DNA from: Halichondria panicea
Lineage: Eukaryota
Length of the DNA: 64,000 nucleotides
Assembly (NCBI RefSeq): GCF_963675165.1
Contig: NC_087378.1
Span: forward strand, 270,562-334,561
Reading direction: 5' to 3'
Part shown: positions 12,038-63,648 of the stretch, piece by piece
How positions within the stretch are numbered: position 1 is the stretch's first letter
Layout of the letters: each line of letters begins with the position of its first letter
The notes under the pieces: model-generated
Seen by the model: only the letters and a program-made list of their open reading frames with translations
What the model was told of the DNA's origin: nothing
Database searches by the model: none
Made by a program: the position numbers and the translations under genes

Positions 12038-27471
<15,434 letters not shown>

Positions 27472-38461: not shown

Positions 38462-41400
38462 ATGGGTGTATGGTGGAGCAAAAGTCAGACTGGTAAGTTG
38501 TCTTTAGCAGGCTAGTACATGTCTGTAAAATTCATCACATCGCTGCAATATTTATAATGACTTTTTACTTGGTTAGTTTATATGTAGCTGTGCATCTCTC
38601 ATTGGTAGCTAGCTCACAGTAGTTATGGTATGCTTATAAGCAGCAGTATTAGTAATATGCTCAGCAGCCACAGGTCTCATGCAAACACCATTCATTTACA
38701 TGCAGTATATGAGAAGATAGAGGCTGGCCTTCATGTGGACCTTGAGGAGACTCTCATCTCCCCCCCTCCTGGCTGCGAGACAGAGTCATGGCTAGAGTAC
38801 TCATTCAAGAGGGACATTGTCAGTGTACCCAGCTCCCTCAACGGCTCTTGGGTCGTACTAGATACCAATACTACAAACCACCTATTGCAATCCACCACAC
38901 CACATGGCAGTACAGAACAACTACAGCATTACAGCAGCACTGAGCAATCATACACAAGCTTAGAGGAAACATCGTACACCACCGTGCTGTCAGAAGAAGT
39001 CTCCTTGGAGGAGCTACAGTGTGAAACAAATAGTGAAATGGAAAGTTCTCTATTGACCTCAACACCGAAACAGGAAGGCAGTCTAACATTGGCTGAGTTG
39101 GGTAAGGAAACAGTCTCTTCCTCTCTGTATTCATTAGGCTGTATTCACCCAGTTTGAATGGCTGCCTGCCTGCCTGGTTGTGGTGTAACATGCATTCAGC
39201 TGAGTAGGCATGCTGACATGGCTGTGTACCCCAAACAAGCGTATTTAATAACAAGTGTAATGTGTAATCAAAACATTACACATTTTTATATTGTGTATTG
39301 CAGTCTTTTAGTCTAGGTGTCCAGCTGTTGTCACCTCATCATGATTGTTCATGTACACAGCTGTAGGGGAGTGTAGGGATGGCGTGTTTCTAGACACTGG
39401 GTCACTGCAGAGGACTCCAGTTCATTGCACCAAACCTTTCCGTACCAACAGAAGTTTAACCTTCAGTGGCACTGATTCACCTAGTAAGTTTGTCTGTACT
39501 TTTAGGGTAGTAGTACACTGATGTGGTACACTAGAAAGTATGTTCTGGTTACTAATGTTGTTTATTTCTTTGCAGGACATTCCCTTTACTCTGGAGCCAG
39601 TGTGCTGTCCATGGGCAGACCATTCTCCCCAAACGGTGGTGAGTTGTGTTGCTTTGTCTTTGAGGTCAGCTGTTGGAAGTGGTCCATTTACCATGGGCTG
39701 TTTATCACTGCCATCAGATTGTGTTGACAGGAGCTAGACACTTAGTACAGTGCCTCTTTGCTTCTGTTGTGGCTATGGCTGCCACAAGGAATTCACCACT
39801 GTTATGTAAGGTGACCTGTTCTTCCCCCAGGTGACTGTCAGTCTCTCACTGCCTCCCTACTAGCCTTAAGCACCTCTTCTGAGAAAGGGCTCTTCATTTC
39901 CCGGCTCCTCCAGACCCATCAGACCACCCTCACACAACAGATAAGACCTAAGGATGTAGCCAAACAGCTCTACAACCTCGCAATCCTAGACACAGCTGAA
40001 ATGAACAGAGCTAGGAGCAGTGCTTTAAACGAGACTGACAGGGCTAAAGCTATTGTGCTGTATCTACAAAAGAAGCTTAGATACAAGCCAGAGCTCTTCT
40101 CTGATGTGTGTGCAGCTCTCAAGAAAGCTGGAGTGGAGATCATTCAACAGATCAAAGGTTTGGTGTAGTTTACATCCTTACATGGCTGCCCTTTGTTGTG
40201 TCTGTGTCTCAGCTGTTGTATTGAGGGTATTGCTCTAATGTAGCAAAGTGATAGGGTGTAGCACATGTTCCATTAGTTGCCAAATACTTCAGTTATTGAC
40301 TAATCAAACTTTGTTTATAAATTAACACACTTAAATTTTCTACAGCTGAAGTTCGCAGCAGATATCCTGATGACTCTGACCTCACAAGGAGCATGTCTGT
40401 GCTTAGCAGAGCAGATCTTATGTCTTCTTGTGAGTTCCTAATTTGTACCATGTGTTGGTTTACAATAGAGGCCCACTGGAGGGTATAATGCTTCATTGAT
40501 TGTGGTACACCATGTTTTGATAACAGCTGATCTGATAACACTGCAGATTGTGAGCCTTTATCATCCATTAGCAGCCAGAGCAGCGAACAACACTTGGAGA
40601 ACACTGTAAGTACTTGTTGAGGGTCTTGTTATATTATGTTACATGCTTTTGTGTACAGGGCGTTTCCCTCGAGGAGGCTTGCAGAGATGGTCTCTTGGTA
40701 ACAGCTAAGCTAATTATCTCCAAAGAAGTGTCTAGGAATGTGAGTATCACTGTAGCCAGACTGCAATGCCTTACCACTAACCTGTCCAGAATGGCCCCAC
40801 TCTCCTGTTAGAAGCGTGCAGACTAGAGGTGAATGTGTGTGTGCTCAATATGCTGCTCACTGAGGCCTCTCTGGACACCAACACCATCACTCAGGTACAC
40901 ACCTCGTGTGCATAGGACCAATCACCAGTATATGATAATTATACCTACGTATACTATAGTATAACAGGACCCCACTCCACACTGCCACTGCTGCTCTCAC
41001 ACCCCAGACCTCCTCACAGGAACTACAGGTAATGTAACTATATCAGACCAACTCCCACTGTATTGATGCCACCTCTCCACAGGCCCACCAGAACCAGCTC
41101 AGGCAACAGAGGATGAAAATTGAGAACCTTCTAAAGCATGAAGCAGACCCAAGTGCTAAGGATGATGTAAGTCAAGTTTTATAATCCTTGTATTGCTTAT
41201 CACTGGACTGTTTCTATATACAGGATGGCAACACTGTTCTCCACCTTGCTGCTCTGAGGAGAGACACTGAGACCGTGGCTATTGTCCTGAGATACAGTAC
41301 TACTTGCATCGACCTCATCAATAAGGTGAGTATATATACCTCATTGACTGTATCCATTGTATGACCTTTGCCCCCCCCCCCCCCTCCAGCGAGGCAACAC

Positions 41401-42150
41401 AGTGCTTCACATTGCCTGTCATGAGGGTCTCACTGAACTAGTCAAGTTACTGTGTGCCAAGGGAGCCAATGTTACCATGCCAAACAACACCAGGGTGAGT
41501 GAGTTCATTGTGTATCTATCAACTTTCCCCTCTACAATAGTTACTTGTACAAACACTATAATGGTACACTGACTGTATGATATGACCCACACACACACAC
41601 ACTACATCACCTACAGGAGCACAAGACTCCCCTGCACTATGCCTGCTACTGGGGCAGTGTAGAGTTGGTGACCCCTCTCCTCAGCAGGGACTCCTCATGC
41701 GAGTACATGAATGCACAGGACGGTAATCAAGACACTGCTCTGCACATTGCCAGTCGCTGTGGACACAAGGCCATCATCAAGCTACTCGTGTCCAGAGGGG
41801 CAGCTAAAAGAGCCAAGAACAAGGTATTTTTCTACCACATTTCAAAATTAAGAATTTTAACTTAATTAGCTTGAATTCACACTAATTAACATGTAATACC
41901 ACTCTTCAATCTTTGATCATCACCTTATGTTGTGTGTTTTAATTATGTATTCCTGTCCCCCTCAGGATGGCAAGACCCCAGTAGACCTGGCTATTCAGCA
42001 CGAGCATAAAAAAGCTGCCAAAACGCTAGAGAAGAAGAGCCCGTGGTTGAAGAGACGCCGCACCAGGTCCAGTGGAGCCACCTCTCCCCTGAGAGTGGAT
42101 ATTGGACATGAGGCTCTGTGTGAGAGTGACTGTGACGAGACTATTAATTA
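38462..42150 (+). CDS. Gene A, ~15 exons. It comprises an MG-start micro-exon (MGVWWSKSQT), a Ser/Thr-rich region, a death-fold (DD/CARD-like) domain, and 4 ankyrin repeats.
   Basis: Exon 1 is 38462-38492 with a GTAAGT donor. Death-fold exon ~39832-40160: GDCQSLTASLLALSTSSEKGLFISRLLQTHQTTLTQQIRPKDVAKQLYNLAILDTAEMNRARSSALNETDRAKAIVLYLQKKLRYKPELFSDVCAALKKAGVEIIQQIK. ANK exons: DGNTVLHLAALRRDTETVAIVLRY..., RGNTVLHIACHEGLTELVKLLCAKGANV, EHKTPLHYACYWGSVELVTPLLSR...DGNQDTALHIASRCGHKAIIKLLVSRGA, DGKTPVDLAIQHEHKKAAKTLEKK. Stop TAA at 42148-42150. Confidence 0.65.
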
Positions 42151-42593
42151 ATTGACTGTGTGTTTGTGTCACTAAAAAAAATCATTACACCATTTTGCGT
42201 ACCTGCTTTTGCTTGCAGGTTTAACTGTCTGTTCAGCTCTGTTTGTATTTTTGTATTCTCATCATTATTATTTTTGTGTGCATGTACTATTAGGAGTGCA
42301 CATGTACTCCTGGCACTATTTATACTATTTTTGTGTCTCTGTACAGTGGAATCACATTCATTTTTTGTCATGTGCACAGCATTAACTATATTCATATGAA
42401 ATCTTGTAAAGATAAAGAATATTGACTACAAAGAGGAATTGAAATATCAAAAATAATAAAGCAATCTAACAAGCTATGGGGAACAGATGGTCCAGACACA
42501 GTAAGGGAAGTAATTGGTGCAAGCCCAGCAGAGTTTGTAAGCTTAGCTGTATATTGATAATCTGCATATTGATAATCTGCATGTGCTAACAAT

Positions 42594-43319
42594 TTGGCTC
42601 CTGTATACATTACAGAGGAGGATACTTCGGCTTCTCTGCCACCACGTCTGCTCAACAGTTCACGGCCTCCCCCTGTCCAACGAGCCAACAGTGATCCAGT
42701 CAACTGTCCAATCCCTTCACCCACTCCTGAAGAACACATTCAATTCACACCTTTCAGTTTCATACTACCAGATAATGCACTCTCTGAACCTTCCCTCAAA
42801 CACCCGCCCACCACCCTCCCACAACCCACACACACACACAACGATGATGATATTGAGCTGTCAGTACGAGATGAAGGTGATGAATGGTGGAGTATCAATC
42901 GTAGGCTTGCAGCAGACGCAGTGGCGGCCACTCCCAACACTAGCAGCTCTGAGGGCACTGACCAGGGCAGTCAGACAAACACCTTTCAATGCTCATATCT
43001 TGGAATGCATAGCTTCACCATTGGCTCGAGGGAACCACAGTCAATAGAACAGAACACAACAGAACAGCAACTACAGGAAGATGTTGTATTGGAAGAAAAT
43101 AGCCATTCAAAAAGCAGCCAAGAGCAAGGACACTCTGTGAGCGTTGGTGGGAGTAGCCACATGCCTGCAGTGTACCTTGGCATGAACAGTTACATCCTGA
43201 CCAAGGAGGAAGAGCTGGAGGAACCAGAATGCAATGATGATAAAACCACTCAAAGTCATGAGGAGTCAATTAATTACAGTAGCTACAATGCTGTTTATCT
43301 GGGAATGACATGCCATTAA
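42594..43319 (+). CDS. Hypothetical low-complexity ORF (241 aa) with three (A)VYLGM(H/N/T) motifs and a Ser/Pro/acidic-rich body. It may be a separate small gene or an alternative terminal exon (acceptor ttacag at ~42620).
   Basis: Long ORF in non-repetitive sequence. The repeated motifs SYLGMHSF, AVYLGMNSY and AVYLGMTCH are spaced ~60 aa apart. Confidence 0.25.
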   Translation: MAPVYITEEDTSASLPPRLLNSSRPPPVQRANSDPVNCPIPSPTPEEHIQFTPFSFILPDNALSEPSLKHPPTTLPQPTHTHNDDDIELSVRDEGDEWWSINRRLAADAVAATPNTSSSEGTDQGSQTNTFQCSYLGMHSFTIGSREPQSIEQNTTEQQLQEDVVLEENSHSKSSQEQGHSVSVGGSSHMPAVYLGMNSYILTKEEELEEPECNDDKTTQSHEESINYSSYNAVYLGMTCH

Positions 43320-44405
43320 TTGTTCTGTTTTTGGATTTACTGTGTCTCAATAGCTGCATTGTTACTATTGTATTGTTGATGTGTACAACACCTTGTTTCT
43401 ATCTCTACCACAATGTTATGTCAAGAGGAACTCTTGGTCATGTGCAAACACAAACCCTGGGACTTCCCCGATCCCTAACTCGCTAGCTATATAGCTGCTT
43501 CTATCTATGCTGCCACGAACAGTCAACTACTAGCCTAGGCTAACCTGAACACTCCTTTGGCAGTTGATACATCAAAACAACAGGTACAATCATTGATACA
43601 ATAGCTACAAAAACTGATAAATAGCTAGCTGGTGTCATTAAGCCTTCTAAAGTTAACTTCAAAAGGGGGGGTCAAGGGACCCCATGGACCCTCCTCTGGA
43701 TCCGCCACTGATAGCCTCCGATCCCATCTTCAGTGCGGCCTGGAACGAGGCTAGGCATACCGTAGCGGGTTATTTTCGAGGCACTAAATTCGAACAAAAG
43801 AGGATTTTATTCTGTGTGGTCAATCCTCCTCGAAAACCTCGAAAATTTTGTGCCTCGAGCTATAACGGACATACGTAGATACTTGCTCATAATTAAGTGC
43901 CTTAATTTATGAGGCATTAATTTATGAGGCACTGCACTAAAGCAAGACTACTCGAAAATTTGAATTTACTTCCCGTATTGTACTCTATATACTGTAGGGG
44001 TATGAACCTCCATCCTTGCCATCCTTGAAAATAAAATCTTTATTTGAGGCGAACAAATTATAACTAAAACGAATGTTTCAATGGCTCCTACTATAGACAC
44101 CTACCGTATACGTGGAAAATTGGTCGGTTTTTAATTTGGCGGATTTACAAGATCGCAATTAGTAGACACAACACCATTGCAGCAGTAGCCACGCCTGAGA
44201 CGACAAGTCAGTTCAAATGCATTATTTGCCAAATCCACCAAAATTAATTAATAATAATATTGTCCAGTTATAATTAGAAAAAACTGCTGTTGATGAATTT
44301 GTATGTACATGTTACCCTCTTCTACTCTACGTCTTTTTCTTATAGGGATTCGGAACTGCTCTCGCATTTTTGTAAGAGTCAGCTATCCTGCCTTCTACCA
44401 AAACA

Positions 44406-46205
44406 TGGCTTCTAAGCCAGCTCCTGGAAGCAGCTACCAATCTATTGAATACCAAACGATGGTCAAGTGTGCTTCTTCAAATTTAAATTGCATTAAATCA
44501 TCACCAAACACCATTGGAACAGCAATGTTCGGAGAAGGCTACATCTCCGAGTATGTCAGAGATATTGTTGGTTCTACGAGTGTATCCGGAGTCGACAAAG
44601 CACAACAGCTTCTGAATACCATAACCGATCGTGTAAAAACCGATCCCCTTGCTTACAATGGCTTTGTTGAGATCATCAGAAATGAAGGTACATGGGCATG
44701 TTGTTATTTGGAGCAACTTCAGAAAGTCTATGAGGAGCTTAGCCTTGAAGCACAACAAATTGAGGAACAGTGCTTGAGTGATTCTGATAATTCCTTTCAT
44801 TCCCTCCCTGACGAGTTATCTTCTCTCAACATAGGTGCAGATGTTACCTCACAAGGATTCATTTGTCCTTATTGTAAAAAGTGCTCTCCCGAATCTTCTT
44901 TTGAAAATGATTGCCCACATGCTGAAGAGACAGAGAAGCTAGAGTGCAAAGCTTTCTTCCCATTTTTAGATTGCTCTAAAATTGATCCTGAAGATAAGAA
45001 AGATCTAGAATGGCACCTTCTTCAAGATTATCGAAAGATTCTAAAGTCTTACGCTCGCCTGGAAAATTCACTAATCAACTCTCTTGAATCTCGTGAAGTG
45101 AACATTGAAAAACTTGACAACTTTGTTTGGAATCTCGTAGAGCCACCTCAAACACAGCAGCAGAAAAAAGTCGAAAAAGCTGAAACGGTGACAGCAATAT
45201 TTATACGTGTACGTCCTCACAAATCGTTCTTCAATTATGATATTGTAGAAGAAGTTTCAAAAGAGTTCGGGACACCTGCCGATAAGAAATTAGTTGCCGA
45301 GTATGTAGCTGCCTTGAATGAATACTGTAAACGCAGTGTGTTTGAAGTTCCTCCTGTCTTTATTCATAATGCCTCCGAAAGGAATGATTGCAAACAGTTT
45401 GCTTTTAAATACACTCCAGGAAACCCTGTTACACTGGGAGACGTTCAGATTATACGTAGAAAAATTGCTTCTATTCTTGGGATTAATGTGAGACTGTTGA
45501 AGCTTTGTTCTATCGAAAAAGGGTGTGTAAAAATGGTCTTCCTTGTGCCCGAGTTTGTTCTTGAAATTATTAACTCCATTTCTGTGAAACAGAGATCTGC
45601 ACTTACAAATCTCTGCATCAAAATTGTGCCAGTAATTGACAGCCGTCAACCACACTCAGATGCTATCACAGTTTCTGATAAAGTATGTCGCTTAGCTATA
45701 TGCATACATACTAGTATACGTAGCTGGTTTGTAGCTGTCTGTTTCATCCATATAACTCTTCGTTCACAGGAAGTTGAATCTCCAAAAGCTGACAAAAAAG
45801 GTCAGTCATTATTCCGAGGCGCGTGGGCGGTCACGGGTTATAGTATAGTCTGTTGGTTACATATAAGGGTGCAAGATTGGATCTTTATACCGCAACCAGT
45901 AAATTATGTATAATTGTGTAGTGATGCTGACATAATTTTATTATGGGGTGCTGTTTGTATCAAAATCCAAAAAGGGTTGATGGTATGAAATGGAGTCTAG
46001 CCGTAATCATGACATCTCAATAATCATTTCAGGTTTAGCCTCCTTCACTGGCCTCCTCTTCGAGAAAGTGCGGTCTAGGATCGAGGCTATTGCAGGCGAT
46101 GCTGAACAACTCAAGGTGCTGTTACGCAGCGATTATTCTGAGTCTGCCTATGGCCAGGATGGAATAAACATAGACATGATTAAGCCAGGTGATGTCAATT
46201 ACTAG
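44406..46205 (+). CDS. Gene B. A large first coding exon (44406 to ~45693) encodes an N-terminal helical, possibly death-fold, module plus a Cys-containing middle region. Small exons follow at ~45770-45810 and 46031-46205. The 3' end shares an exon family with gene G. The gene may extend downstream or be spliced to gene C.
   Basis: MASKPAPGSSYQSIEYQTMVKCASSNLNCIKSSPNTIGTAMFGEGYISEYVRDIVGSTSVSGVDKAQQLLNTITDRVKTDPLAYNGFVEIIRNEGTWACCYLEQLQKVYEEL.... The last exon GLASFTGLLFEKVRSRIEAIAGDAEQLKVLLRSDYSESAYGQDGINIDMIKPG is homologous to gene G exon SDAEKLKLLLPPMNYSVFNKDGVNIDFVEPG (46095-46300 is ~85% identical to 61143-61340). The apparent stop GDVNY* may in fact be an intron donor (CCAG|gtgatg), as in gene G. 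Confidence 0.45.
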
Positions 46206-46616
46206 CAAATAGGACACTTATTGATGCATGATAACACAGTTGCCAACACTGCGGACACCAACCTTGAAATCAGTGATGATTCTGCAGTTTCAGATAAAGT
46301 GTATGATATTTATCGAAGCGTAGCTGCACAAGGGATATACCGTATACGTAGCGCTAAATTTTTTCAAGGGGTTTAATTTTTGCTGTTTTCGTAGGTTAGC
46401 AATCCTACATAAAAATAAAGTCCACGAAAATTGTTCTGTAATTAGAATTATCAGCTAAAACTTAAAGGCGTGGCTTCCAGTAAGCAGTCATCCCACAAAC
46501 ATTGTGCAACGAAATGCTTTTAGAGGCTATTCCAAATTTTGCGCTTACGATATATACAATAAAGCTGACTGTGTGTCTGTTTTGCAATAGATTTGTCGTT
46601 GAGGGTGGGTTGTGCC

Positions 46617-49005
46617 ATGCAACCTACCATCCCCGAACCAGAAGGTTATATTGACTCTGAGCAGCCAAAACCAAAGCCTGTTCTCCCAAATGGTAAGAGT
46701 GCTCATGCATTTGTGACAAAATAGGTTCACAATCTTTTCACCATTATTTTAGAAACTGGAGAAAGTATGGTCGAATTCATATACAGACGAACCAAAGACA
46801 ATTATGTTCGATTGACAAGTGACATCCGTAGGCTAAACCCTCACCATGTAGCGGTGTACCTGTTTCAGAATAACCTGATTGGCATGGAGGAACTCAACTA
46901 TTCGGCTAACCTATACCGTGAAGATAGTGTCAAAGCAACTCGATTAGCCAATGTAATCTTCACCTGCGACCTCCCTCACCAGTTCCAGGCTGTCCTGACG
47001 GCATTCGAAGAAGCTGGAGTTGAGACTGTGACAGAGATTGCAGGTAAATATTAAGCGTTTTTTAGTTTGTATTAATTTTAAGCTGTTGCAGCTGAAGCGA
47101 GAGATCTTTATCCTGATGCCTTCCTTCCTTCCTCTGATCCAGAGACTCCACTGAGTCAACAGGTAATCATTGTATGACTTGTGTATGTATGGTAATATAA
47201 TATAATTGTTGACCTTGTAGAATAAAAACTTAGAGTTTGATCAACTTAAAGAAAAGATAACGCAAGTGTCAGCTGATGGAGGTGGTGGTCCCACAGCAGC
47301 TATAGCATACATTAACGAGCTGGTTCATCCAAAGGTTGGTTACGGATAAACTCTCACGCACCGGTATTTCACATGCAAAGCTATTGGTGGGTGTGGTTTC
47401 CTGGCATTAGAAGAACCCACAAAAATTAATTTATGTTGAGGGCTCTGGAACAAAATAATAGTAAAAAATTTCCCACTATATACGGTAATATGTTGTGCAG
47501 GAGAGGGAGTTGCTGCTTCACAAGGCCAGTCATGGCACCACTGACTTGAATACCTTCAACATTGTGCTCCTGTCTACAGAGGCAGCATTGATCAACTTTT
47601 CAGATGAGGTAAAATAATAACAGCTGTATAAGTTATTTGATGTGTTGTCTAACCTCAGAGAGTCAACCAGAGGACCCCACTCCATGTTGCTTGTGCGTGT
47701 CTGCCTGATACTCGAGACGACATTAAGACTAAGCAACAGTTGTCAAAAATCGACAGCTTATTGAAGCATGAAGCTAAAGCTACACTGCAAGACATTGTGA
47801 GCTCATGTTATACACACACTGCTAATAATGACGTGTCTACAGGATGGCAACACCCCCCTACACTTGGCTGCACTACGCGGTAATGCCAAAGCAGTGTCAT
47901 TGATTTTGACGCTTGATCCAGACTCCAGGAACATAGCAAACCATGTGAGAGATAATGTATTAGCTGCGCACATGAAAATAATGATAACATAATATATATC
48001 ACCCTGTGTTCTTATGTACAGCTTGGTAACACAGCATTACATATAGCAAGTAAGAAAAACTTCTTGGAAGTGGCCCGAGCTCTGTGTGCGCACAAGGTGG
48101 ATGCTTGTCTATCCAACAAGACGAAGGTTGGTGAAGGGATCGGTGTGTGAGTGTGTATATTGGGTAATGTTGGCATATAATTACAGAAATCACGTACTCC
48201 TTTGCATCAAGCTGCGTCCAATGGCCATTTGAAGATGGCAAACATGATCCTGGAGTATGAACCCAGTTCAGCAGTGTGTGTTGACAAGGTTTGTTCGGAT
48301 ATTGTCATGATACCATAATGATTAATAGCTTTATTTTGTAGAAAAACATGAGCCCTCTGCTACTGGCTGCTAAGTGTCGCAAGGTGAACATTGTTGAGCG
48401 GCTGGTCAAGAAATCTCTGTGTCCAGTTTTTGTAATTGATAATGTGAGTTCTAATTTTTTGACATGCCACAGGCTAGATTAAATGTCTCCCTCACTCCAG
48501 GAGGGGAGGACCCCTCTCCACTTTGCCTGTGCCTGGGGTAGCTACGAACTTGTTGAGCTTCTCTTGAAAGCAAACAGCTCGAGAAATTTCGTCAACCACA
48601 AGGACAACAAGGGAGATACTGCATTGCATATAGCCGGTCATCATGGTGATACCAAGGTCTGGAAACTTCTGTGCTCTAAGAATGCCTCCAAAAAAGCAGT
48701 CAATGATGTAAGCTTTTATACAGTACTCTATATGTATCATTACCATGAACCACTCTAGTTTGATGAGACACCTAAGGAGGTAGCAGCCAATGCTGGTCAT
48801 CACTCTCTTCCTTATAGAGGACGAATAATTAAAAAAGTTACAAGGAAGATTCAGAAGAAGATATCAAAGCAGCCTACCCTAAGCTCCTCTCAGTCGTGTG
48901 TGTCCCTCAGGTCTACTGCCAGTGCCCTGTCATTCCAGTCCACCATCTCTGCCAACAACTACCTACAAACTACCGAAGAAAGCGACCTCGATGAAACTGT
49001 GTGAA
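46617..49005 (+). CDS. Gene C, ~13 exons: a CARD/death-fold domain followed by ~8 ankyrin repeats and a basic/Ser-rich tail.
   Basis: CARD-like exon 46750-47052: ETGESMVEFIYRRTKDNYVRLTSDIRRLNPHHVAVYLFQNNLIGMEELNYSANLYREDSVKATRLANVIFTCDLPHQFQAVLTAFEEAGVETVTEIA. ANK exons: RVNQRTPLHVACAC..., DGNTPLHLAALRGNAKAVSLILTLDPD, LGNTALHIASKKNFLEVARALCAHKVD, KSRTPLHQAASNGHLKMANMILEY, KNMSPLLLAAKCRKVNIVERLVKK, EGRTPLHFACAWGSYELVELLLKAN...KGDTALHIAGHHGDTKVWKLLCSKNASKKAVND. Last exon ...ETPKEVAANAGHH...ESDLDETV*. The first exon has an upstream AG acceptor, so fusion with gene B transcripts is possible. Confidence 0.65.
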
Positions 49006-52200: not shown

Positions 52201-52498
52201 ACTCTGGATCACTGGGACACTTGTGTATTGGCCTGTCTGCAGAGCATGGCTCTCTTGAAGGACCTGCATGTACGTAGTCAACCACTAGCTACAGTAAGAG
52301 TTGGGTGGGTACCTGTGTGAATATCCTCTGACACAAACACCTCACAGCTCTCCTCTATCCCAGGTCCAATAAGAAGCCAGCCCTCAATCTCTTCTGGTGG
52401 GTGGTGGCTGGGCTCTGCAAGACAGGTTCCATCATACACTGCACACTATATATCATGACAGCTAAATAGTCTTACCTTGCTCTTGTTGACTGATAATG
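49243..52498 (-). CDS. Gene D (minus, convergent with gene C). It has an MG-start micro-exon (MGGIISQQEQ at 52498-52468), a Ser/Pro-rich region with SRTARTASVE x3 repeats, at least 6 ankyrin repeats, and a tail paralogous to gene C.
   Basis: Minus-strand exons: KQRCPLHQAIVKGHTKVVEVLVNYDPGVVDCTDG, DGNTPLHLATLHNNADCVKLILKNTPTCRDIANN, DGRTPLHYACEWGESELVGWLLKTDSSHSYINTQDNHGDSALHLAYRHGNCDIVTLLKSKNASKKITNK (compare gene C EGRTPLHFACAWGSYELVELLLKANSS...), last exon AGETAKEAGVNAGHPPHPKK...SLLTSTSSAH x2...*. Stop at 49243-49245. Confidence 0.55.
49263..49330. repeat. In-frame 33-bp tandem duplication (GGGCGGAGCTAGTACTCGT(C/T)AGCAGAGAGT x2) inside the last coding exon of gene D.
   Basis: Read directly. 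On the minus strand it encodes the duplicated SLLTSTSSAH. Confidence 0.8.
49801..49945. repeat. ~62-bp tandem repeat x ~2.5 in a gene D intron. Each unit re-copies the splice acceptor (ctgtag on the minus strand) plus the first ~26 nt of the following ANK exon (GATGGACGTACCCCCCTCCACTATGC).
   Basis: ctacagggggagggaagggggtagtgtacatgcatagtggaggggggtacg(t/c)ccatc is repeated. The authentic exon start is the first copy at 49800. Confidence 0.75.
50813..50842. repeat. (AC)15 microsatellite.
   Basis: acacac run. Confidence 0.9.
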
Positions 52499-52749: not shown

Positions 52750-52761
52750 ATCTATGTTGTA

Positions 52762-54298: not shown

Positions 54299-54441
54299 GT
54301 TGTATATTCAGCATAAGGTGGGGAAAGGTCCTCAAAAAAACTAACTGTCTCGAAGGGAAGCCGCGGAATGCCTTTGTGTACCTATGAGAGGGGTGGGGCT
54401 GCTTGGTGGTCAAGAAGCTTTCTAGCCCCTTACAACAAGTG

Positions 54442-57114
54442 ATGAGTAACTGCTCAACAGGTGACTATCTGAGTGATGTGTGTGCGGTGATTGTGAAACA
54501 AGGAGTGGGGAAGGCCAGGGCTGACATACTCTCAAGACAGCTAGTCGCTAATGGAGGAAGGACAAAAGATAGCCTTGATAGTACAGTGACTCACGTCCTA
54601 GTGGGTAACAATGTCCGTTTGTCTCGTGTGCCACACTTGATGAAACTAAAGCAAGTGCCTGACAATGTTCTAGTACTGAGAGCTGATTGGCTGAGTGCTT
54701 GTCTAGTGGAAGGACGAAATATTGGTCACGTTCAGTACATCGTACCCCCGGAGTCCCCCGTCAAGATAAGCCACACCCCCTCTCCCATCAAGCCATCACC
54801 CTCGACTACAGTAACTAAGAATAAAGTGCCAACACCTTCAGAATCTCAATCAGAAATTGTCAAAATAGAACCAGATTCTACCTCCACTCCATTGGACGTA
54901 CCTCATGACCCACCCTCTACACCACCAGACACATCACATGACCCACCCTCTACCTCTAGCATGACCTCCCCCAAGGTAAGGGGGTACTACTTGCTCTCTC
55001 ATGTCCATCACTCTTAGTCCCCCTCACAGGCTGGCATGTTCAGAGTGACTGACCGTCGCTGGAAGGTGCGGCTGGAACCACACAGAGCCAAGGGACGGTG
55101 GGAAGATGCGGACTCTGATAGTGATTACTCAGGGGACGAGATGGAGGAGACAAAGGAGGAGAGAGACAAGGTGAGGCATGCTAGTACATGCTTGAGATGT
55201 GTGGTTTGATAGTAGCAGTTGTGGTCAGGGCATGTCACAGCATGCCAGAGCATTGATCATCATCCCTCACAGCGTGTGGAGTTTGCCAAGCAAGAGGTGG
55301 CTACCTCCTCCCTAGCCTTGATCCCAGGCCGCACTGAAGGCCTTGTGAAGGAGGCTACCTCCTCCCCTGCCAAGAAGAAGGTGTGTGGGTGTGTGAAGAT
55401 GGTGGGTGGTGACGTTTGTGTATTGCAGGGACGGTGGATTTGTGAGATGCCGTCCTCAGAGATCAAGGAAAGAGTCAACCTTAACAAACACATCACTGAC
55501 AAACTGGAGGTACGTGCGCCGTGTCTTGTATGACCTAAACACTCCCTACCCATGCACACAGGATCTGGTGAGTGTGTACCAGAATAGTGGGGACAAGTGG
55601 AGGGCACTGCAGACCAACAAAGCAATCCAGTCCATCAAGAGACAGACCACAGAGATCACCTCCTATGAGGTAGACCAACTAGTAGAGGGAAGAGGAATTC
55701 CTTTTCAATTTGTATTCTGTTTCTCATACAGGAAGCTCGAGACCTGCCGTTTGTTGGTGAGCGGATAGCTAACAAGATTGATGAGATTATCTTCAGTGGT
55801 GGTCTCAGACGATTAGAGCACGTGGACAAGGAGAAGGAGGCGGTCCTCACCACTTTCATGAACATCCACGGTGTAGGGAAAGTCATTGCACACCAGTTCT
55901 ATGCTCAGGTGAGAGCTCCAACTAGTACGTACATCTCCAGGGTTATTGCTTATGCTCTTTGTATGACAAAGAACCAAATTCTGGTACTAACTTAGCCCCC
56001 CTCCTCACTCATGCATTGTCAGGGCTACCGTACTCTTGATGAGCTACGAGACAGTGGAGTGCTCAATAGACAGCAGACGATTGGCCTGAGGCACTTTGAT
56101 GACTTTAACGAGAGGATGACTCGGGATGAGGTGGCTGAGATCGAGGAGAGGGTGAGGGTGGTCTACTAGTAGGCACACTGTCAATACTGTACACACCTCT
56201 ATTGAACATACTGCCCTAACTAAGATCCCGTATCGTGGTTGAGATCACTTAGTTGTAGCTACTGATTTCCCTACAGAGCGCTTGTAGACTCTTAAGTGTT
56301 GTAACAAGTGTTGTCTCTGTGCAGGTAAAGGAGTTGTGTGTGTCCATTGTCCCGGGCATAGAGGTGGTCACATGTGGTTCGTATCGCCGTGGCAAGTCCA
56401 CCTGTGGAGATATTGACCTCCTCATCACTCATCCTGATGGCCGCTCACACAGAGGAGTGTTTGAACAGCTGCTAATACAGGGGAGGGAGGTGGGGTTCTT
56501 CACAGATGACCTCTCTGTACATAATGACCCCGGGGGACAGTGCAAGTACCTGGGGGTGTGTCAACTCGGGCCAAATAGGAAGGTAGATGATCCTTATTAT
56601 GCTCAGACCCTATACCCTAGTACCCCCTCCCCTCTCCTCACATAGTATCGTCGTATAGACATCATCCTGGTACCATACAACGAGTTCCCCCTGGCTCTGC
56701 TCCACTTCACTGGTTCAGGCCACTTCAACAGATCCATGAGGAATAAGGCCGATAAGATGGTGGGTCCATACCCTAACCAGTCATGTCATTGTTTATTGCC
56801 TCCTCCTATAGGGAATGTCCCTCTCAGAGCACGCCCTGTGTACTGGAGTCATCAGAAAGGTATTGCTCTACACCACATTGTCTGTGCACGCACGTACAGT
56901 GTACATATATGTTCAACCTTATAATTATAGTTACCACTACTTTACAGTAGCTTATTATGTCGAGTATACACACAGTATTCACTTCTTTCTACCCCCTGTG
57001 CAGAATGGGGCTAAGATATTTGATGGTACCCCCCTCCCTGTGACCTGTGAGAAGGATGTGTTTGACTACCTCAACACAGAGTACAGAGTAGCCACTGAGA
57101 GAGACCACCCATAA
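54442..57114 (+). CDS. POLL: DNA polymerase lambda (family X), with a BRCT domain, a Ser/Pro-rich linker, an 8-kDa lyase domain and the polymerase domain. ~10 exons. The start is assigned to ATG 54442 (the track ORF begins at a TTG).
   Basis: BRCT region [36 protein letters not shown]...HVLVGNNV...[19 protein letters not shown]. Then HITDKLE|[36 protein letters not shown]|[59 protein letters not shown]|[43 protein letters not shown]|[52 protein letters not shown]...[11 protein letters not shown]|[38 protein letters not shown]|[16 protein letters not shown]|[36 protein letters not shown]. Colinear with human POLL, including the catalytic Asp triad context. Confidence 0.85.
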
Positions 57115-57429
57115 GCTAGAACTAGTGAGTAGTGCAAATCATTCTTGAACATAAACAACACTCTGGAGTTATAATTTTGATCACATGCTTTGTTGCTCAA
57201 ATATTCATGTTTTATTTCGGTTTGTTCAAACAACTATTGTCCAGTAGCATTGTCTAGAGATATTACAGCTGCAGTTGATAATGCTTGTGTCATCACTTTC
57301 TCTTTACTTGCTAGCGTTAATCACAGCCATATTCGACAATGAATGCAATATTGACAAATGGTTTTAATGTCAGTACAGCATTTTAGACGGCAAAAATCAT
57401 CAATTCTCATTAGCAACCCTTAGCCGAAC

Positions 57430-59612
57430 ATGGGTATTAACCTAAGTCAAAGCAAGCAAACAGGTAAGTGTCCCCTATATACTAAGTGTTGGTACCTGGT
57501 GCTGCATGATCTCACTCTCCAAGGCTTCATTGACGAGAGTGGAGAATACAACCAGGAGTGTTGGCATGAGTGGGTGCTGTATCACAAATCCAAGTCACTA
57601 CCTGCCTCGTTGGATCGTGGGTCAAGTACTCTCAATGAATTTGAAAGGCTATCTAGCAAATCTGAGCCGCCTACAATAAAACGTAAGAAAGCTCCAACTT
57701 TTACAATTGGTCCTGCTACCAACAACTCGCCAGAAAGTGACTCCGACAAAGAGTTAGAACCACACATTCTTAATGGTGAGATTCTCCGCATTTTTTTGCA
57801 TGATTATTCTAAGTATACACCATTTTTGCAGGCGTATACTGCATACAGAAACCAGATGTGATTGATATTACATCAGCAGGGGCAATGTATCCAACAGTTA
57901 AAGATCAAAAAACAGCCTTTGGTGTCAATTTTGAGGTTCCCAAAGGAGCTGTTCCGACCGATGCTGCTACATCGTTAGAAGTGGCTGTTTGTCTCAGTAT
58001 CGGTTCGAGCCAATACCCAGAGGACACCACTCCCATCTCCCCCATCCTCCAGCTACATCCCAAAGAAAACTTCAAGCTCCTGCAGCCGATCACTGTCACC
58101 ATGCCACACATACTCTCTGAGCCCTCTGATATAGGAGTCATGAAAGCTGTGACCACGGAGGACCGGTTTGAGAAAATCGATACAGAAATTACTCTTGGGA
58201 ATAAAGATGGACATGGAACAGCTACTTTCCGTTTGGAGCACTTCTGCTACATACAGCTGTACACTAAACTAACACCCGATACAACAAAAACAATTCGCTA
58301 TTGTATTTTTCCAGTTCTACCCAGGAAGGTTCCCTTTGATGGGTCGTTTATGCTGTACTTCTGCATAAGTTATCATATGAAAGAATGTCGTGAGGTAAGT
58401 ACACTCTAATTATGTATACTGACTCCTTGAGCTAGTGTTTCTGTACGTACAGGCAATTGAAGATCAGTGTAAGAATATAGCAAAGCTCAAGGAGCATGGC
58501 CATGAACTTGTAGAGGACAAGCTTCAACCGTTTTTGTTCAAGCCTGAAGCCAATAGCATCAGTGCTACCTGTACTAGACCCAAACAGAAATCAGGTTGGG
58601 AGTGGAGAAATCTCAACGGAGAAAGAGGAGTGAGTTTAGTATATTATACAAGTCATGTGCTTTTATTGTTACATAATTATGCTAGTGTACAATGAAGTTG
58701 ATTGTACATGTATGCTTCCCCAGATTGTAACAGAATCAGTCAAACCATGGAGCATGGACCCTGCTAATCTGAAGGATGAAGCTAACAGATTTCTCTATCC
58801 CCCCAGCTTTAAGGTAGAGGTACGGGGCTCCGGAAACAGAACAAGTCAAGATGAAATCGTTATGAATTTCTCTGGAAATACCGAGACACCTCTTCCAGAT
58901 ATTGGTTTTTACCTACCAGGTAGTATAGGGTGTGTCATGACTGACATTGATGCTTTGATTGCCTTAGGGAATAATGCTGCCTTGAATCTAGGAGACCATG
59001 ACAAATCGCATCTGTCGTTAGGTGGGACAAGTTGCATATGCTCTATTATTGTAATTAGCTCCAATTCATCCAGGTTCAACTGTATACGACTCAGCTACGT
59101 GTACCACACAAGAATCAGTTCTTAGGACTAATTATGAGGACATCATCTCAATGGTTTCACAAGATACGCAGGGTGTTGCTGACAGCCTGTTCTCCAAAAG
59201 GCTTATCGAAACACCAATCCGAGATGACGTGAGGGATGATCGCAGAGGTTCCAACAGAGACAGGGCAAGAAAAATTGTGGACAACATATTTGATAGGATT
59301 AAAGGAAAACATATCAATTACGAGCAATTTCGTACCTTTTTGGACATTCTTGCTTCTCAAAGTCAAGAAAACAGCCAGAAAATAAAAGAAATACTTGGTA
59401 ACTTGTAATTAACGTGCATTTGCTTAATTTTGTGTATCAATACAGATTCGGATAGAGAGAATTTGAGTCCCACGATTGAAACCGACGATCTAGCCAGCTC
59501 TTTAGATTCAGTGTTTGAATTTGAGGCCCCTCCTTCTACATCTGACATTCCCGGGTCCAGTGGTAGCAGTGACAGTGAAGAAACTCATCGTCGTATCACT
59601 CAAGGACAATAA
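57430..59612 (+). CDS. Gene F. It has an MG-start micro-exon (MGINLSQSKQT, 57430-57463), a linker exon, a ZU5 domain and UPA-like region (57830-58396), further exons, and a C-terminal death-fold (DD/CARD-like) domain.
   Basis: ZU5: AFGVNFEVPKGAVPTDAATSLEVAVCLSIGSSQYPEDTTPISPILQLHPKENFKLLQPITVTMPHILSEPSDIGVMKAV. UPA-like: GTATFRLEHFCYIQLYTKLTPDTTKTIRYCIFPVLPRKVPFDGSFMLYFCISYH. Death-fold: SQDTQGVADSLFSKRLIETPIRDDVRDDRRGSNRDRARKIVDNIFDRIKGKHINYEQFRTFLDILASQSQENSQKIKEIL. Stop at 59610-59612. Confidence 0.6.
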
Positions 59613-60216
59613 TTCATAATTATCGTACATGCATGCATAACTTAGCTGTGGAAAAGATAAGGTGTAATTGTAATTCATTGCCTTTAAATTTAAAAGAATG
59701 TGCTGACAATATCTCACAGCTAGATCTAGTTCAATGATTTGTCTGCACTCGTACTCTTCAATGCATCCAATAATTATAATGTGTTATATTCAAATTTCAA
59801 GACAATAATAATTGTAAAATAGCTAGATCTTCATGAATCATGATTTGTAATTGTATACATGTACATGTAGTGTACATCAATGACAGCATTGCAATGAATT
59901 ATAGGCCACCTACAGGGGGGGTTATGGTGGGTTGGCCACGCCCAGCTAGGTTGAGGATCTGCATCATCATGTCTGATCATGTCCACTAGTCACTGTCTGT
60001 GTGTCACCATAGATAATAGAGCAACTCTTTTATCTATGACTACATTCTGTCGAGTATGTACCTGCAGCAGTCAGTCAGTGCACATGAGTTGCGTGTGTGC
60101 ATGCAGAGAATTTCAGATTGGCAAAGTTAGCTATCAAAAACAGACCCATTTCCACGCATGCTTTTTCTTCAAAATTAATTAAAAGGGTCTGAAAGCATGC
60201 AATCATTGCCACCATT

Positions 60217-60602
60217 CAGTAGACATCATCCTGGTACCATACAACGAGTTCCCCCTGGCTCTGCTCCACTTCACTGGTTCGGGCCACTTCAACAGATCCA
60301 TGAGGAATAAGGCTGATAAGATGGTGGGTCCGTACGTACCCTAACCAGTCATGTCATTGTTTATTGCCTCCTATAGTTATAGTTATAGTTACCACTACTT
60401 TACAGTAGCTTATTATGTCGAGTTTACATACAGTATTCACTTCTCTCTACCCCCTGTGCAGAATGGGGCTAAGATATTTGATGGTACCCCCTTCCCTGTG
60501 ACCTGTGAGAAAGATGTGTTCGACTTGATTACCTCAACACAGAATACAGAGTAGCCACTGAGAGAGACCACCCATAAGCTAGAACTAGTGAGTAGTGCAA
60601 AA
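60217..60602 (+). pseudogene. Duplicated fragment of the Pol lambda 3' end. It copies the last two coding exons and 3' flank of 56653-57137 at >95% identity, with a ~100-bp internal deletion that removes the [16 protein letters not shown] exon. It lies between genes F and G and is a non-functional pseudo-fragment.
   Basis: Translations [41 protein letters not shown] and [30 protein letters not shown] were read directly. Alignment shows cctcctatag[deleted]tatagttaccac. Confidence 0.75.
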
Positions 60603-60919
60603 CATGTTACTGTAGCTAGTAAATGAACAATCAAAGCTGTTGGTTTTATTTGTGCTCAATCATCATTGCATTGTCTATAGCATAGCTGTTGTAAGAATTA
60701 ATGTATTATTTTGGCCTTCACAATAAGTGTCATTTGAATTCATTGTGGGAACATATTGTTAGCAGGTGTTTACCCTATTCATTTTATGCTCGTCACGTTT
60801 TGCATGACCTCTTAGAATAACTATATTCATGTGCCAGACATCGTATATAGCTAACCAACTAGCTGCTGATCTGTGAGAGTATACAGCTGTGTAGAAACAA
60901 TACTTTTTTGGAAGCCACC

Positions 60920-63648
60920 ATGGCTGAAGGTAACTAAATAAGTATCAACCTGAATTGTGGTTAACTTGTTATCTGAATATATTAGCTGTTTCAACTGTTT
61001 TCTGTTTCCATACACAGGAGGGAAAGGCGAAGAATTGCCAGATTATGGGGAGGATTGGACACACATTGAATCAAGTAACTTTCAGACAATATAATTATGC
61101 ATTACTGATTAATGACGTGTGTTCACTATTTAAATCGTGACACTCTTGTGCAGGTGATGCTGAAAAACTCAAGCTGCTGTTACCTCCAATGAATTATTCT
61201 GTCTTTAACAAGGATGGAGTAAACATAGACTTTGTTGAGCCAGGTAATCATTTACAGTTAATTACTAGCAAATAGGAGACTTATTGATGCATGATAACAC
61301 AGTTGCCAACACTGCGGACACCAACCTTGAAGTCAGTGATGATCCTGCAGCTGCAGGTAAAGCGCATGCATGATAATTATATATATATAGCACTTATTGA
61401 TGATGATAATACAGTTGCTGACTCTGCATTAAGTACAGACACCAGCCTTGAAGTCAGTGATGATCCTACAGATTCAGCCAATCTGTTGTCAACCAGCACT
61501 GATGAGTTAGCTGCATCATTACCATCGAAAGATCTGCCTGCAAGTAATAGTAAGGAGCTTCAAGTACGATTGTTGCATGCATAATTTATGCTAGAATCAT
61601 TTGCAGATCAAACTGAAACAACCAGTACTTTTGATAAAGATGCTAGTAAGGGACCAACTATGCTACTTCAGGGAAATGAAAAACCTACTGAATGCATAAT
61701 TCAAGGTCACGAGGACTGTACAGTAACCACTCAAGGTACTCTATTGTAACTAACTGATTGGTTGCGTTGATACATCCATACAGATTATGTGCAACCGCCC
61801 ACTCTATTTGAGGTGTCTTCTGAAGGAGGAACATGTTCTCTCAAGGATCTGAATGTTACCATCAAAATTCCACAAGGAGCTGTTCCGCCTGGTGTTAAGG
61901 CATATTTTCGAGTAGCAGTGTGTCTTGGCAGTGGACAGAGTGTGTATCCAGCGGGCGCAATCCCCATCTCCGCAGTCTTTTTGCTACAAATGACAAACGG
62001 AGTTGAGCTCCAGGAACCTGTCAGAATTTCTCTGCCGCACTTTCTGTCGGACCCTGCTAAAGTTGGTGAAATGGGTGTTATGAAAGCTCCACACGACGAG
62101 TCTGGTCCCCCAAAGTTTATTGAACAGCCTTGTAAAGTTACACCTGTAGATGGGCACGAAATAGCCACTTTTTCTATTCAGCACTTCTGTTACTTGCAAT
62201 TGTATACAAAAGCAAAATCTGAAGAGGCTTTGGAATTCAGGTACTGCATTTGTCCGGTTTTGCCTCTCTTTTCAAATATGCCTCTTGGCACACCATTTTT
62301 TATGTATTTCTGCTTGACGTACTTTGATCCAACTTTCTTGATGGTGAGAGTCACTAGCGTGTGTGCTTAGGTATGTATGTATTACATGTGTCTATTCTTC
62401 ACCCCTCAGGCACTTGATTCACAGTGTGAAACAGTTCCCAGATTAAAGAACCATCGTGTTGATAAGGACAGAATAATACAGTTTACTGCATCACACAGTT
62501 TGAGGGTTAGCACTGTCAAATATAAAGTCAATAAACCACAACGCAATAGTGGCTGGCAGTGGGACGTTTCTTACACTGTGAGTATTTTCTTTAACTTCAC
62601 CATTGTATATAGGATTGACACATAACGTCTTTTTTCCAGGCTCTAGATATGCCTCTTCATCCCTCAGAACACACTGATAATGGCTTTAAATATTTGTTCA
62701 ACTCATTCCTCTATCCTCCAAGTTACAAATTGGAGGTCTGTGGCTCTGGGAGCAAAACAAATACAGATATGGTTGTAGTAACCTTCCGAGACTGTTCAGG
62801 AAAGAAAATTGAAATAGCGGTGCCGCTACCATCTTATACCCCTGGTAAGTGTACACAGATTGTTACTAATAAACGTTATGATATTTGATTGACTTTACCT
62901 CAGGCCCCAAAGAGCCGGAAAAGCTTTCTCCTGAGTACATAGTGTTCAAACTATGCTCAACAAAGCTAATACAGATAATAAAAATAGTCGCGGTTACCTT
63001 TGGTGATGCTCTTTGGTCAGCGGACTTGATACCGAGTGATGTGTTGGACTGCACGCGGGAGATGACACACGCTGTAGAGAAAGCTCAGAAGCTAGTGTAT
63101 ACCATAAGAGACTCTATTGAGCATAGGCCGAGCAAGTATCATGACTTTGTTAAAGTTCTGAAAGACAATAACGAATCATGGGCGATCAATGCCCTCAGCA
63201 CACTGGATAAATGCTACAGTGACCTCAAAGGGAAATATATTTCAGAAGTACTAGAACACCACAGAACAACTCTTATAGTGGAAATTAATCCCATATTGGG
63301 CAGAGTAATCAATCGTCTCTGGAGATTGTGTATTGTTCGAGTTCCTGACTCTAGGAAGTCGGCCCAAGATGTCATAACTATCTTAGGCGATGAGCTGAAA
63401 TGTAAACCATGGCTGTTTAAAAATGCATGCATTGCTCTCGGCATTGGAGGCCTGAAAAAGGACACTATTAAAACCATTCAAGGTATGTCAGTGAGTATGT
63501 GATGAGTGTTCACAATGTCATATCATGCAGTTACGGTGTGTAAGCGCTTCCCTAAAGCTTTGAAGGAGACACAAGTGCTTGATGGGAGTGGTGGTAGAAG
63601 AGAGCTGATGGTAGAGAACACTCCTAAGAGAACCCTGACTATGCCGTG
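60920..63648 (+). CDS. Gene G, a paralogue of gene F. It starts with a Kozak ATG (gccaccATGG), followed by small acidic/Ser-rich exons, a ZU5 + UPA exon (61783-62345), two middle exons, and a large exon (62905-63480) with tandem death-fold domains, then a short terminal exon.
   Basis: ZU5: TLFEVSSEGGTCSLKDLNVTIKIPQGAVPPGVKAYFRVAVCLGSGQSVYPAGAIPISAVFLLQMTNGVELQEPVRISLPHFLSDPAKVGEMGVMKAP. UPA: HEIATFSIQHFCYLQLYTKAKSEEALEFRYCICPVLP...FFMYFCLTYF. Death-folds: IQIIKIVAVTFGDALWSADLIPSDVLDCTREMTHAVEKAQKLVYTIRDSIEHRPSKYHDFVKVLKDNNESWAINALSTL and ILGRVINRLWRLCIVRVPDSRKSAQDVITILGDELKCKPWLFKNACIALG. Exon order parallels gene F (..SGWEWRNLNGERG / ..SGWQWDVSYT; ..FLYPPSFKVEVRGSGNRT / ..FLYPPSYKLEVCGSGSKT). 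Confidence 0.55.

Follow-up and report, generated by a model that had tools for sequence, protein, structure and literature searches.

A tandem cluster of CARD, ankyrin-repeat and ZU5-UPA adaptor genes in the sponge Halichondria panicea, with a putative cysteine-dependent self-cleavage motif

Should neighboring genes that divide ankyrin (ANK) repeats, ZU5-UPA modules and death-folds among themselves be understood as the parts of an ankyrin- or PIDD-like gene, or as a gene family of the sponge's own making? The question is raised by a 64,000-nucleotide stretch of contig NC_087378.1 (positions 270,562 to 334,561 of the forward strand; hereafter the window), which is part of the already annotated RefSeq genome (GCF_963675165.1) of the demosponge Halichondria panicea and has a eukaryotic make-up, with short introns and ~44% G+C. 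Six adaptor-module genes (A, B, C, D, F and G) lie within 39.8-63.6 kb of the window, a ~25-kb stretch displaying three module types: CARD, ANK repeats and ZU5-UPA. A first-pass annotation, made from the nucleotide sequence alone, had described them as a disassembled ankyrin/PIDD architecture. All six genes were recovered where it had placed them and on the same strands, and its domain reading proved essentially right. Stop-to-stop open reading frames (ORFs) were joined by hand into products and scanned against Pfam, with GT-AG splice models built afterwards. The locus is probably a tandem array of adaptor genes that are specific to the sponge lineage and organized around one divergent CARD family, in which F and G would self-cleave by the mechanism proposed below.

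Gene G corresponds to the RefSeq gene LOC135332284 (XP_064383735-38), an "uncharacterized protein" with four annotated isoforms, and its exons match the RefSeq protein exon by exon at 100% identity across window positions 61017-63649. The first coding bases (MAE) belong to an exon farther upstream. The exons of G and of its neighbor F are as follows.

61017-61076, 61156-61242, 61302-61355, 61414-61548 and 61597-61734, + strand: N-terminal exons of gene G (RefSeq protein mapping)
61783-62343, + strand: ZU5 exon of gene G, with H284-F285-C286 at 62182-62190 (RefSeq mapping, Pfam)
62410-62577 and 62640-62846, + strand: UPA-like exons of gene G (RefSeq mapping)
62906-63481, + strand: CARD1 and CARD2 of gene G, in one exon (RefSeq mapping)
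63530-63649, + strand: last exon of gene G (RefSeq mapping)
57430-57774, + strand: N-terminal region of gene F, starting MGINLS (splice-site reading; first intron tentative)
57834-58394, + strand: ZU5 exon of gene F (Pfam), with H-F-C at 58239-58247
58453-58629 and 58724-58918, + strand: UPA-like exons of gene F
59076-59408, + strand: CARD exon of gene F, with a possible alternative extra acidic exon to 59612

Both products are arranged as a disordered N-terminus, ZU5 and a UPA-like region, followed by one CARD in F or two in G, and they share 31% identity over 438 residues (blastp, E 2e-53). Pfam ZU5 (PF00791) scores 24.4 bits in F and 30.3 bits in G, over the gathering score of 21. An exhaustive HMMER search retrieved 283 relatives of gene G, ~130 of which cover residues 150-340, and a profile of 74 homologues matches the ZU5 domains of ZO-1 (E 9e-10), ankyrin and UNC5B in the PDB. 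An AlphaFold2 model of G was generated from an alignment of 74 homologues; CARD-only rows were left out since MAFFT placed short CARD fragments onto the ZU5 region, X padding notwithstanding. By predicted local distance difference test (pLDDT), the model divides into four parts.

Residues 1-147: pLDDT <50, disordered
Residues 150-375: pLDDT 85-97, all-beta
Residues 380-470: pLDDT 35-80, poorly defined
Residues 470-665: pLDDT 90-97, two helical bundles

The top Foldseek match of this model is the ZU5-UPA-death domain (DD) supramodule of UNC5B (3g5b; E 6e-13, 436 aligned columns), a structure of 383 residues, with a template modeling (TM) score of 0.54 normalized to the target. Ankyrin-B ZU5-ZU5-UPA-DD (4d8o; E 2e-10, 444 columns), ankyrin-1 ZU5 (3f59, TM 0.64) and ZO-1 ZU5 (2kxs) are also matched, as are autoproteolytic GAIN/GPS domains of adhesion G-protein-coupled receptors (e.g., 8oek and 4dlo, E ~1e-4). 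The Foldseek alignment places ZU5, UPA and death-fold in that order in the single G polypeptide. Of the ZU5+UPA+death-fold composition initially assigned to F and G, the ZU5 part is thus upheld by Pfam and by the UNC5B and ankyrin-B fold matches, while UPA is a fold-level assignment only, made for G residues 345-470 by alignment of the predicted structure. The ZU5(HFC) module is joined to very different N-terminal parts: one homologue of 1533 residues (P0072) displays RasGEF_N, RasGEF and a weak DED ahead of a C-terminal ZU5(HFC) module.

The feature that sets the self-cleavage question is a tripeptide shared by F and G, both of which read HFC at the motif site (..EHFCY../..QHFCY..). In the G model, H284-F285-C286 occupies the loop that joins the final strand of ZU5 (277-282) to the long strand after it (287-293), so placing a conserved [H/S]-F-[S/T/C] motif at the ZU5/UPA junction. 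PIDD and Nup98 carry HF/S at this place, and CARD8 and NLRP1 carry SF/S. Among the ~130 homologues whose sequence spans the ZU5 exon, H284 is conserved in 128 of 131, F285 in 102 of 131 and C286 in 124 of 131, and two upstream histidines, H236 (130/134) and H254 (111/131), are further conserved. The SF/S cleavage site of CARD8 lies on a loop where its ZU5 ends, just before a long strand and with the Phe buried, and H252 and H270 are both required for cleavage (D'Osualdo et al., PMC3210808); the 18-residue spacing of that pair equals that of H236 and H254 in G. Acyl-shift chemistry of this kind can employ Ser, Thr or Cys as the nucleophile (PMC3210808), and ZU5, GPS and Nup98 have been grouped in a single superfamily of autopeptidases whose active site is a thiol (Zhang et al., PMC3482391). 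CARD8 also possesses a disordered N-terminus ahead of its ZU5 (PMC9213247). Because of the motif conservation, its position in the modeled loop, the histidine spacing, the precedent for thiol chemistry and the CARD8-like layout, G likely cuts its own chain at the F285-C286 bond, Cys being the putative nucleophile. No report of a Cys-nucleophile ZU5 or FIIND was found in the literature searched.

Two further observations concern the 5' end and the annotation of gene F. Its start, MGINLSQ (57430-57465), fits the N-myristoylation pattern M-G-x-x-x-S, and a strong donor (CAG/GTAAGT) only 11 codons in means that the first exon may be tiny. None of four hand-built gene F models was found by exact look-up in the protein collection.

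What links F and G to their neighbors is the helical domain. A domain family was called CARD when it folds into six bundled helices, the first of them kinked, and resembles solved CARDs most closely, or when it reaches the Pfam CARD gathering threshold; on this definition the cluster's domains belong to the CARD subfamily of the death-fold. Two types can be told apart: type 1 comprises the CARD of B, CARD1 of G and the C-terminal domain of F, and type 2 comprises the N-termini of A and C and CARD2 of G. The N-terminus of B, originally described as a helical domain akin to a part of G, indeed aligns with G residues 490-589 (blastp E 2e-9; phmmer 1e-8 to 5e-11 against B-family members), and that of A aligns with G residues 578-676 (blastp E 6e-8). 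The C-terminal domain of F matches Pfam CARD at 23.2 bits (E 7e-5), just under the gathering score of 23.9, while a 1213-residue homologue (P0039) with ~9 tandem type-1 copies reaches 76.7 bits. A CARD1 profile aligns over nearly the whole domain with the CARDs of ICEBERG (E 0.005) and caspase-9 (E 0.055-0.077), matches that fall below the usual significance cutoff. For type 2, the gene A domain matches Pfam CARD_2 below the gathering score (E 0.007), the family profile is related to the CARD1 family by hhalign (probability 94.3%, E 1e-7), and the G copy is modeled as helical with pLDDT >90; searching the type-2 profile against PDB chain sequences gave nothing meaningful. No Pfam Death (PF00531) match was obtained in any gene at E ≤ 1-10. 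The death-folds are therefore all CARD-like, and the DD-like label of the first-pass annotation should be changed accordingly.

The type-2 domains of A and C precede ANK repeats, and gene D consists of such repeats without a detectable death-fold. The exons of these three genes, and of B, which lies between A and C, are listed below.

39815 to 40162, + strand: CARD-like (type 2) exon of gene A, 5' limit approximate (ORF start); Pfam CARD_2, blastp and hhalign
40659-40739, 41224-41325, 41390-41494, 41617-41823 and 41966-42151 (including the stop), + strand: ANK exons of gene A, predicted from GT-AG splice models
44405 to 45682, + strand: gene B, a single 426-codon exon ending at the donor GATAAA/GTATGT (45682/45683)
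44435-44749, + strand: CARD of gene B, residues 11-115 (AlphaFold2 model, Foldseek)
about 44864-44914, + strand: four invariant Cys of gene B (C154, C157, C160 and C170)
45389-45628, + strand: RRM/ferredoxin-like alpha/beta domain of gene B, residues 329-408
46098-46187 (DAEQLK...MIKP) and 46239-46298 (VANTADTNLEISDD...), + strand: 5' "leader" exons of gene C with their intervening intron (blastn against G; tblastn of the G protein)
46753 to 47043, + strand: CARD-like (type 2) exon of gene C; spanned by the A-C alignment and a member of the type-2 alignment
47663-47796, 47843-47944, 48022-48126 and ~48187-48288, + strand: first four ANK exons of gene C (splice models)
~48345-48443, 48501-48707 and 48759-49004, + strand: last three ANK exons of gene C (splice models)
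52288-51820, - strand: Ser/Pro-rich first exon of gene D, the whole gene being 49243 to 52288 (splice models)
51156-51017, 50957-50856, 50579-50475 and 50422-50321, - strand: first four ANK exons of gene D (splice models)
50263-50162, 49799-49593 and 49458-49243, - strand: last three ANK exons of gene D (splice models)

ANK repeats, like ZU5, pass the Pfam gathering scores, which for Ank_2 is 27.3. Gene A matches Ank_2 at 113.8 bits (E 6e-33) and Ank at E 1.5e-28, and possesses ~6 repeats; its first description as DD-like with four repeats was correct in combining a death-fold with ANK but not in the type of fold or the repeat number. Gene C (Ank E 1e-28; Ank_2 96.7 bits) displays the eight repeats originally counted once the small exons 48187-48288 and 48345-48443 are included; its CARD-like domain taken alone had no Pfam match. 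Gene D (Ank_2 122 bits, E 1.6e-35; ~8 repeats) runs tail-to-tail with C and is 37-42% identical to it across the ANK region by blastp, in agreement with its initial reading as an ANK-only convergent paralogue. A and C share 32% identity over 363 residues (blastp, E 2e-43), with the N-terminal domain included in the alignment. At its C-terminus, gene C reads ...EESDLDETV before the stop, and the final D-E-T-V (48975-49004) resembles a class I PDZ-binding tail (S/T-x-V). The paralogous tail of gene A (...ESDCDETIN before the stop) ends in D-E-T-I-N at 42122-42151. A local tandem duplication in gene D (49770-49945, - strand; 87% over 63 bp), just upstream of the double-ANK exon, yields a second, frame-shifted "DGRTP..." start that is probably intronic debris.

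Gene B had no Pfam match as a whole in the whole-product scan, and a B-family profile retrieved nothing meaningful from PDB chain sequences. A 12-sequence alignment could be assembled from relatives of its ORF (32-86% identity), from which AlphaFold2 modeled residues 11-115 (pLDDT 82-90) as a bundle of six helices, the first of which is split. Foldseek matched this model to the CARDs of Apaf-1, ARC, RIP2 and caspase-1, with TM scores of 0.70-0.79 normalized to the target. The TRADD-like_N match of B is weak (E 0.16, and E 0.026 in one relative). By its layout, gene B fits the published description of Death-like plus TRADD-N proteins of the NCOA6 clade and is a candidate member of that set.

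For the exact product of gene B, the only database entry is a raw ENA ORF call; the protein is absent from the NCBI set, where its closest protein is a RefSeq paralogue (P0004/P0028) of 84% identity. That paralogue extends 240-390 residues past the equivalent of gene B, by exons absent from the window, and the relatives of B diverge immediately past the position equivalent to its donor. Despite 16% divergence from its nearest paralogue, B keeps all 45 family-invariant columns. In two contigs from ENA assemblies ERZ25069764 and ERZ25067879, presumably of other sponges, ANK-exon arrays flank a B-family ORF and share its strand (L001, 13200-21431 and 1000-3000; L002, 12860-15000). These arrays are long and composed of near-identical single-repeat exons with a period of ~230-530 bp, which suggests that proteins combining CARD, RRM-like and ANK parts are a recurrent sponge architecture. 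Because a donor closes its ORF, its paralogue continues and ANK arrays follow B-family ORFs elsewhere, gene B may represent just the 5' portion of a larger gene. A direct B-C splice was considered and rejected: the B donor is phase 0, whereas the C leader and CARD exons appear to have phase 1 acceptors (by homology with the G copy and from the splice model, respectively), and the join would therefore be out of frame. In the longest isoform of the RefSeq paralogue (P0028), a C-terminal stretch (GLADKVGLKNEDVVVAVNG) looks PDZ-like by eye.

How the modules came to lie side by side is recorded in part by the DNA itself. The two leader exons of gene C and their intron (46091-46313) are 81% identical over 235 bp to the corresponding part of gene G (61149-61380) by blastn, while outside this block C and G are unrelated or far more diverged. 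The block directly attests that exons passed recently between a gene of CARD-ANK type and one of ZU5-UPA-CARD type. Its exons in G are phase 1-1, with splice sites fixed by the RefSeq protein, and the same is assumed by homology for the C copy; the second leader exon is also duplicated internally in G (self-blastn). From the paralogy among the products seen by blastp and from the C/G leader block, an origin of the cluster by local duplication and exon shuffling is supported. The local module-shuffling family proposed by the first-pass annotation is accordingly sustained, and agrees with the published sponge surveys (PMC3482391, PMC8195603).

The cluster is interrupted by one gene unrelated to the family and passed over in the first-pass annotation, gene E (54403-57114, + strand), whose Pfam domains (BRCT, HHH_8, fingers, palm and thumb) identify a Pol X, Pol-lambda-like protein. 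A copy of its 3' exons (source exons 56656-56804 and 56919-57142) lies between F and G at 60220-60605 on the + strand with 94-95% nucleotide identity, and shows ongoing, recent local rearrangement. An origin of F and G in that same recent duplication was rejected, as the two are 31% identical in protein with no DNA-level match, against 94-95% for the fragment.

Sponge expansions of ZU5 and of Death-like/TRADD-N proteins have already been published, and the H-F-C motif is one new detail. ZU5 proteins show a lineage-specific expansion in sponges (Zhang et al. 2012, PMC3482391), a group that F and G fit. In Amphimedon, 357 proteins carry between one and three Death-like domains at the N-terminus, together with a TRADD-N of RRM-like type and a variable tail (Kaur et al. 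2021, PMC8195603), and gene B resembles them in its N-terminal Death-like domain (a CARD), subsequent RRM-like alpha/beta domain and the variable tails of its relatives.

Among known proteins, the FIIND-CARD of CARD8 and NLRP1 shares with F and G a disordered N-terminus, ZU5, UPA and C-terminal CARD and an x-F-nucleophile motif on the loop ending ZU5, and CARD8 shares with G two upstream conserved His 18 residues apart. G differs in having a putative Cys rather than a Ser nucleophile, in the first motif residue (His, as in PIDD and Nup98, instead of Ser), in its two tandem CARDs and in lacking a FIIND match in Pfam or among its top 50 fold matches. PIDD1 (LRR-ZU5-ZU5-UPA-DD, LRR being leucine-rich repeats), which self-cleaves at HF/S, shares with F and G the H-F-x motif with an invariant His and the ZU5-UPA-death-fold module, which in PIDD1 feeds a death-fold signaling platform; F and G differ in having one ZU5, no LRRs, a CARD for the DD and Cys for Ser. 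The supramodules of UNC5B and ankyrin-B/G (3g5b, 4d8o and 6m3q) give the best fold matches across the ZU5-UPA-death-fold span of G, but they do not self-cleave, have no H-F-nucleophile motif and carry a DD as their death-fold. Ankyrins moreover carry their ANK repeats on one chain with these domains; in this cluster the arrays are encoded apart, by CARD-ANK genes. CARD8/NLRP1 FIIND-CARD or PIDD are closer functional analogues of F and G than ankyrin is.

On this basis, the following course of events can be proposed. The ZU5-UPA of F, and especially of G, would cut its backbone between F285 and C286 by an N-to-S acyl shift, with Cys taking the place of the vertebrate Ser as nucleophile. The two G fragments would stay together until the N-terminal piece is removed, upon which the freed UPA-CARD piece would oligomerize and recruit other CARD proteins. 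With both CARD types, G could bridge B-type and A/C-type partners, and the ANK arrays would provide ligand- or target-binding surfaces. From domain content only, we infer involvement in immunity, allorecognition or cell death. A tentative extension, for which the chances are well below even, would see a large sponge ZU5(H-F-C)-UPA-CARD family that uses Cys self-cleavage and UPA-CARD release to follow, outside the bilaterians, the "functional degradation" logic of CARD8/NLRP1 without a NACHT; the two CARD types of G would pair with those of B and of A/C, the cluster encoding a sensor together with its own adaptors.

Several points weigh against self-cleavage and against the domain reading on which it depends. 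The proposed equivalence of HFC with HFS/SFS is drawn from secondary-structure position and residue spacing. Neither FIIND (PF13553) nor UPA was matched by Pfam in F or G at E ≤ 1; the 50 best Foldseek matches of G include neither the NLRP1 nor the CARD8 FIIND and are headed by non-cleaving UNC5B and ankyrin, and the NLRP1 and CARD8 sequences in the PDB are unmatched by the family profile. The UPA-like part of G (380-470) is poorly modeled, with few homologues covering the region. H254 and C286 are 32 residues apart, compared with 27 in CARD8, and in many long homologues the motif module stands at the very C-terminus with no CARD following. In gene F, Thr replaces the His equivalent to H254, and its product may for this reason be less active or non-cleaving, and the conserved His and Cys residues could be metal-binding or purely structural instead. 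F and G might accordingly be non-cleaving scaffolds, each a closed, auto-inhibited UNC5B/ankyrin-like supramodule that opens on ligand, with H-F-C, H236, H254 and C305 in structural or metal-binding roles; we regard this as possible but doubtful. It accommodates the best fold matches (3g5b and 4d8o do not self-cleave), the missing second His of gene F and the conservation of other Cys/His residues (C305 in 115/127; Cys at column 289 in 97/131), which is compatible with a structural or metal site. It sits less well with a motif that is exactly H-F-nucleophile at the junction loop, with both Phe and nucleophile retained at the frequencies given above, with the Leu that UNC5B has where the essential Phe stands (PMC3210808), and with autoproteolytic GAIN/GPS domains among the significant fold matches.

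The gene count can be questioned separately. Part of the cluster may be debris or misdelimited, B being a truncated 5'-exon copy of a LOC135330889-type gene and D an ANK paralogue that has lost its CARD, to leave fewer than six functional genes. The missing 240-390 residues of B relative to P0004, its record as a raw ENA call, the ANK arrays downstream of B-family ORFs in two other contigs and the local rearrangement seen in the Pol-lambda fragment all fit such a view; we nevertheless consider it unlikely, with all exons open and flanked by plausible GT-AG sites, the 45 invariant columns of B intact and a B-C junction that would be out of frame. Far less probable still is descent of the cluster by fission of an ancestral ankyrin- or PIDD-like gene containing ANK, ZU5, UPA and DD. 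In its favor, ankyrins contain modules of these types, and ankyrin-B ZU5-ZU5-UPA-DD is among the fold matches of G, yet a canonical ankyrin (ANK1-3) combines ~24 ANK repeats with ZU5-ZU5-UPA-DD in a single protein, whereas arrays of 6-8 repeats and single-ZU5 modules are found here in different genes. The ANK genes A and C have N-terminal CARDs of their own, the unrelated Pol-lambda-like gene stands between them and the ZU5 genes, the death-folds are of CARD type rather than DD, F and G have one ZU5 instead of two and no LRR, and the occurrence of ZU5(HFC) in ~130 homologues with different partners, such as RasGEF and DED, speaks for shuffling within a large family. No evidence of descent from an ankyrin or PIDD gene was obtained, and the disassembled ankyrin/PIDD of the first-pass annotation holds as a metaphor only.

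The FIIND-CARD principle, in which a sensor is pre-cut and its CARD fragment released when the other half is degraded, has so far been studied in vertebrate CARD8 and NLRP1. If F and G self-cleave, the principle would predate bilaterians and use thiol chemistry, and a concrete, testable module for sponge immunity or allorecognition would be at hand, with candidate partners encoded next door. Otherwise, the locus would be one more annotated, uncharacterized case of the known sponge expansions of apoptosis-type adaptors. It is in itself a compact example of death-fold, ANK and ZU5 recombination via exons of phase 1-1 and a pair of 5' exons held in common, and the parts that merit experiment are the H-F-C motif and the CARD-type pairing of G with its neighbors.

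The surroundings of the cluster are of mixed content. A tblastn search of window positions 1-38000 found no further paralogues, and no Pfam match was found for the ORFs at 38630-39157, 42594-43319 and 45990-46300. The first two fall inside the span that the first-pass annotation had given to the cluster; 42594-43319 is a candidate part of gene A, and 38630-39157 is a candidate part of gene A or of a PDCD4-like gene immediately upstream of the cluster, recognized by two MA3 domains (55.6 and 64.1 bits) at 36697-37516 on the + strand. Farther upstream are genes for major vault protein (31075-32863, + strand) and for a protein with an FAA-hydrolase domain (28075-28941, - strand).

A 629-residue intronless ORF (17584-19473, + strand) with a Cys-rich N-terminus, many hydrophobic segments and no Pfam match is duplicated ~4 kb downstream (21648-23433, + strand), where it is split over the overlapping frames 21648-22397 and 22267-23433. 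Near this copy, at 23564-24513, lies a ~930-bp minisatellite of ~27-bp period that is open in two frames, with a nine-residue unit (MLIYTYCCF / LYADLYLLL) repeated ~30 times. At the start of the window (180-7180, - strand), at least 15 tandem, near-identical exons of ~112 residues, each encoding a Calx-beta domain (Pfam, 78.8 bits), recur with a period of ~407 bp; their near-identity suggests very recent amplification or concerted evolution. With an exon encoding a NIDO domain on the same strand (9895-10269, - strand), they perhaps form a very large extracellular protein of the aggregation-factor type.

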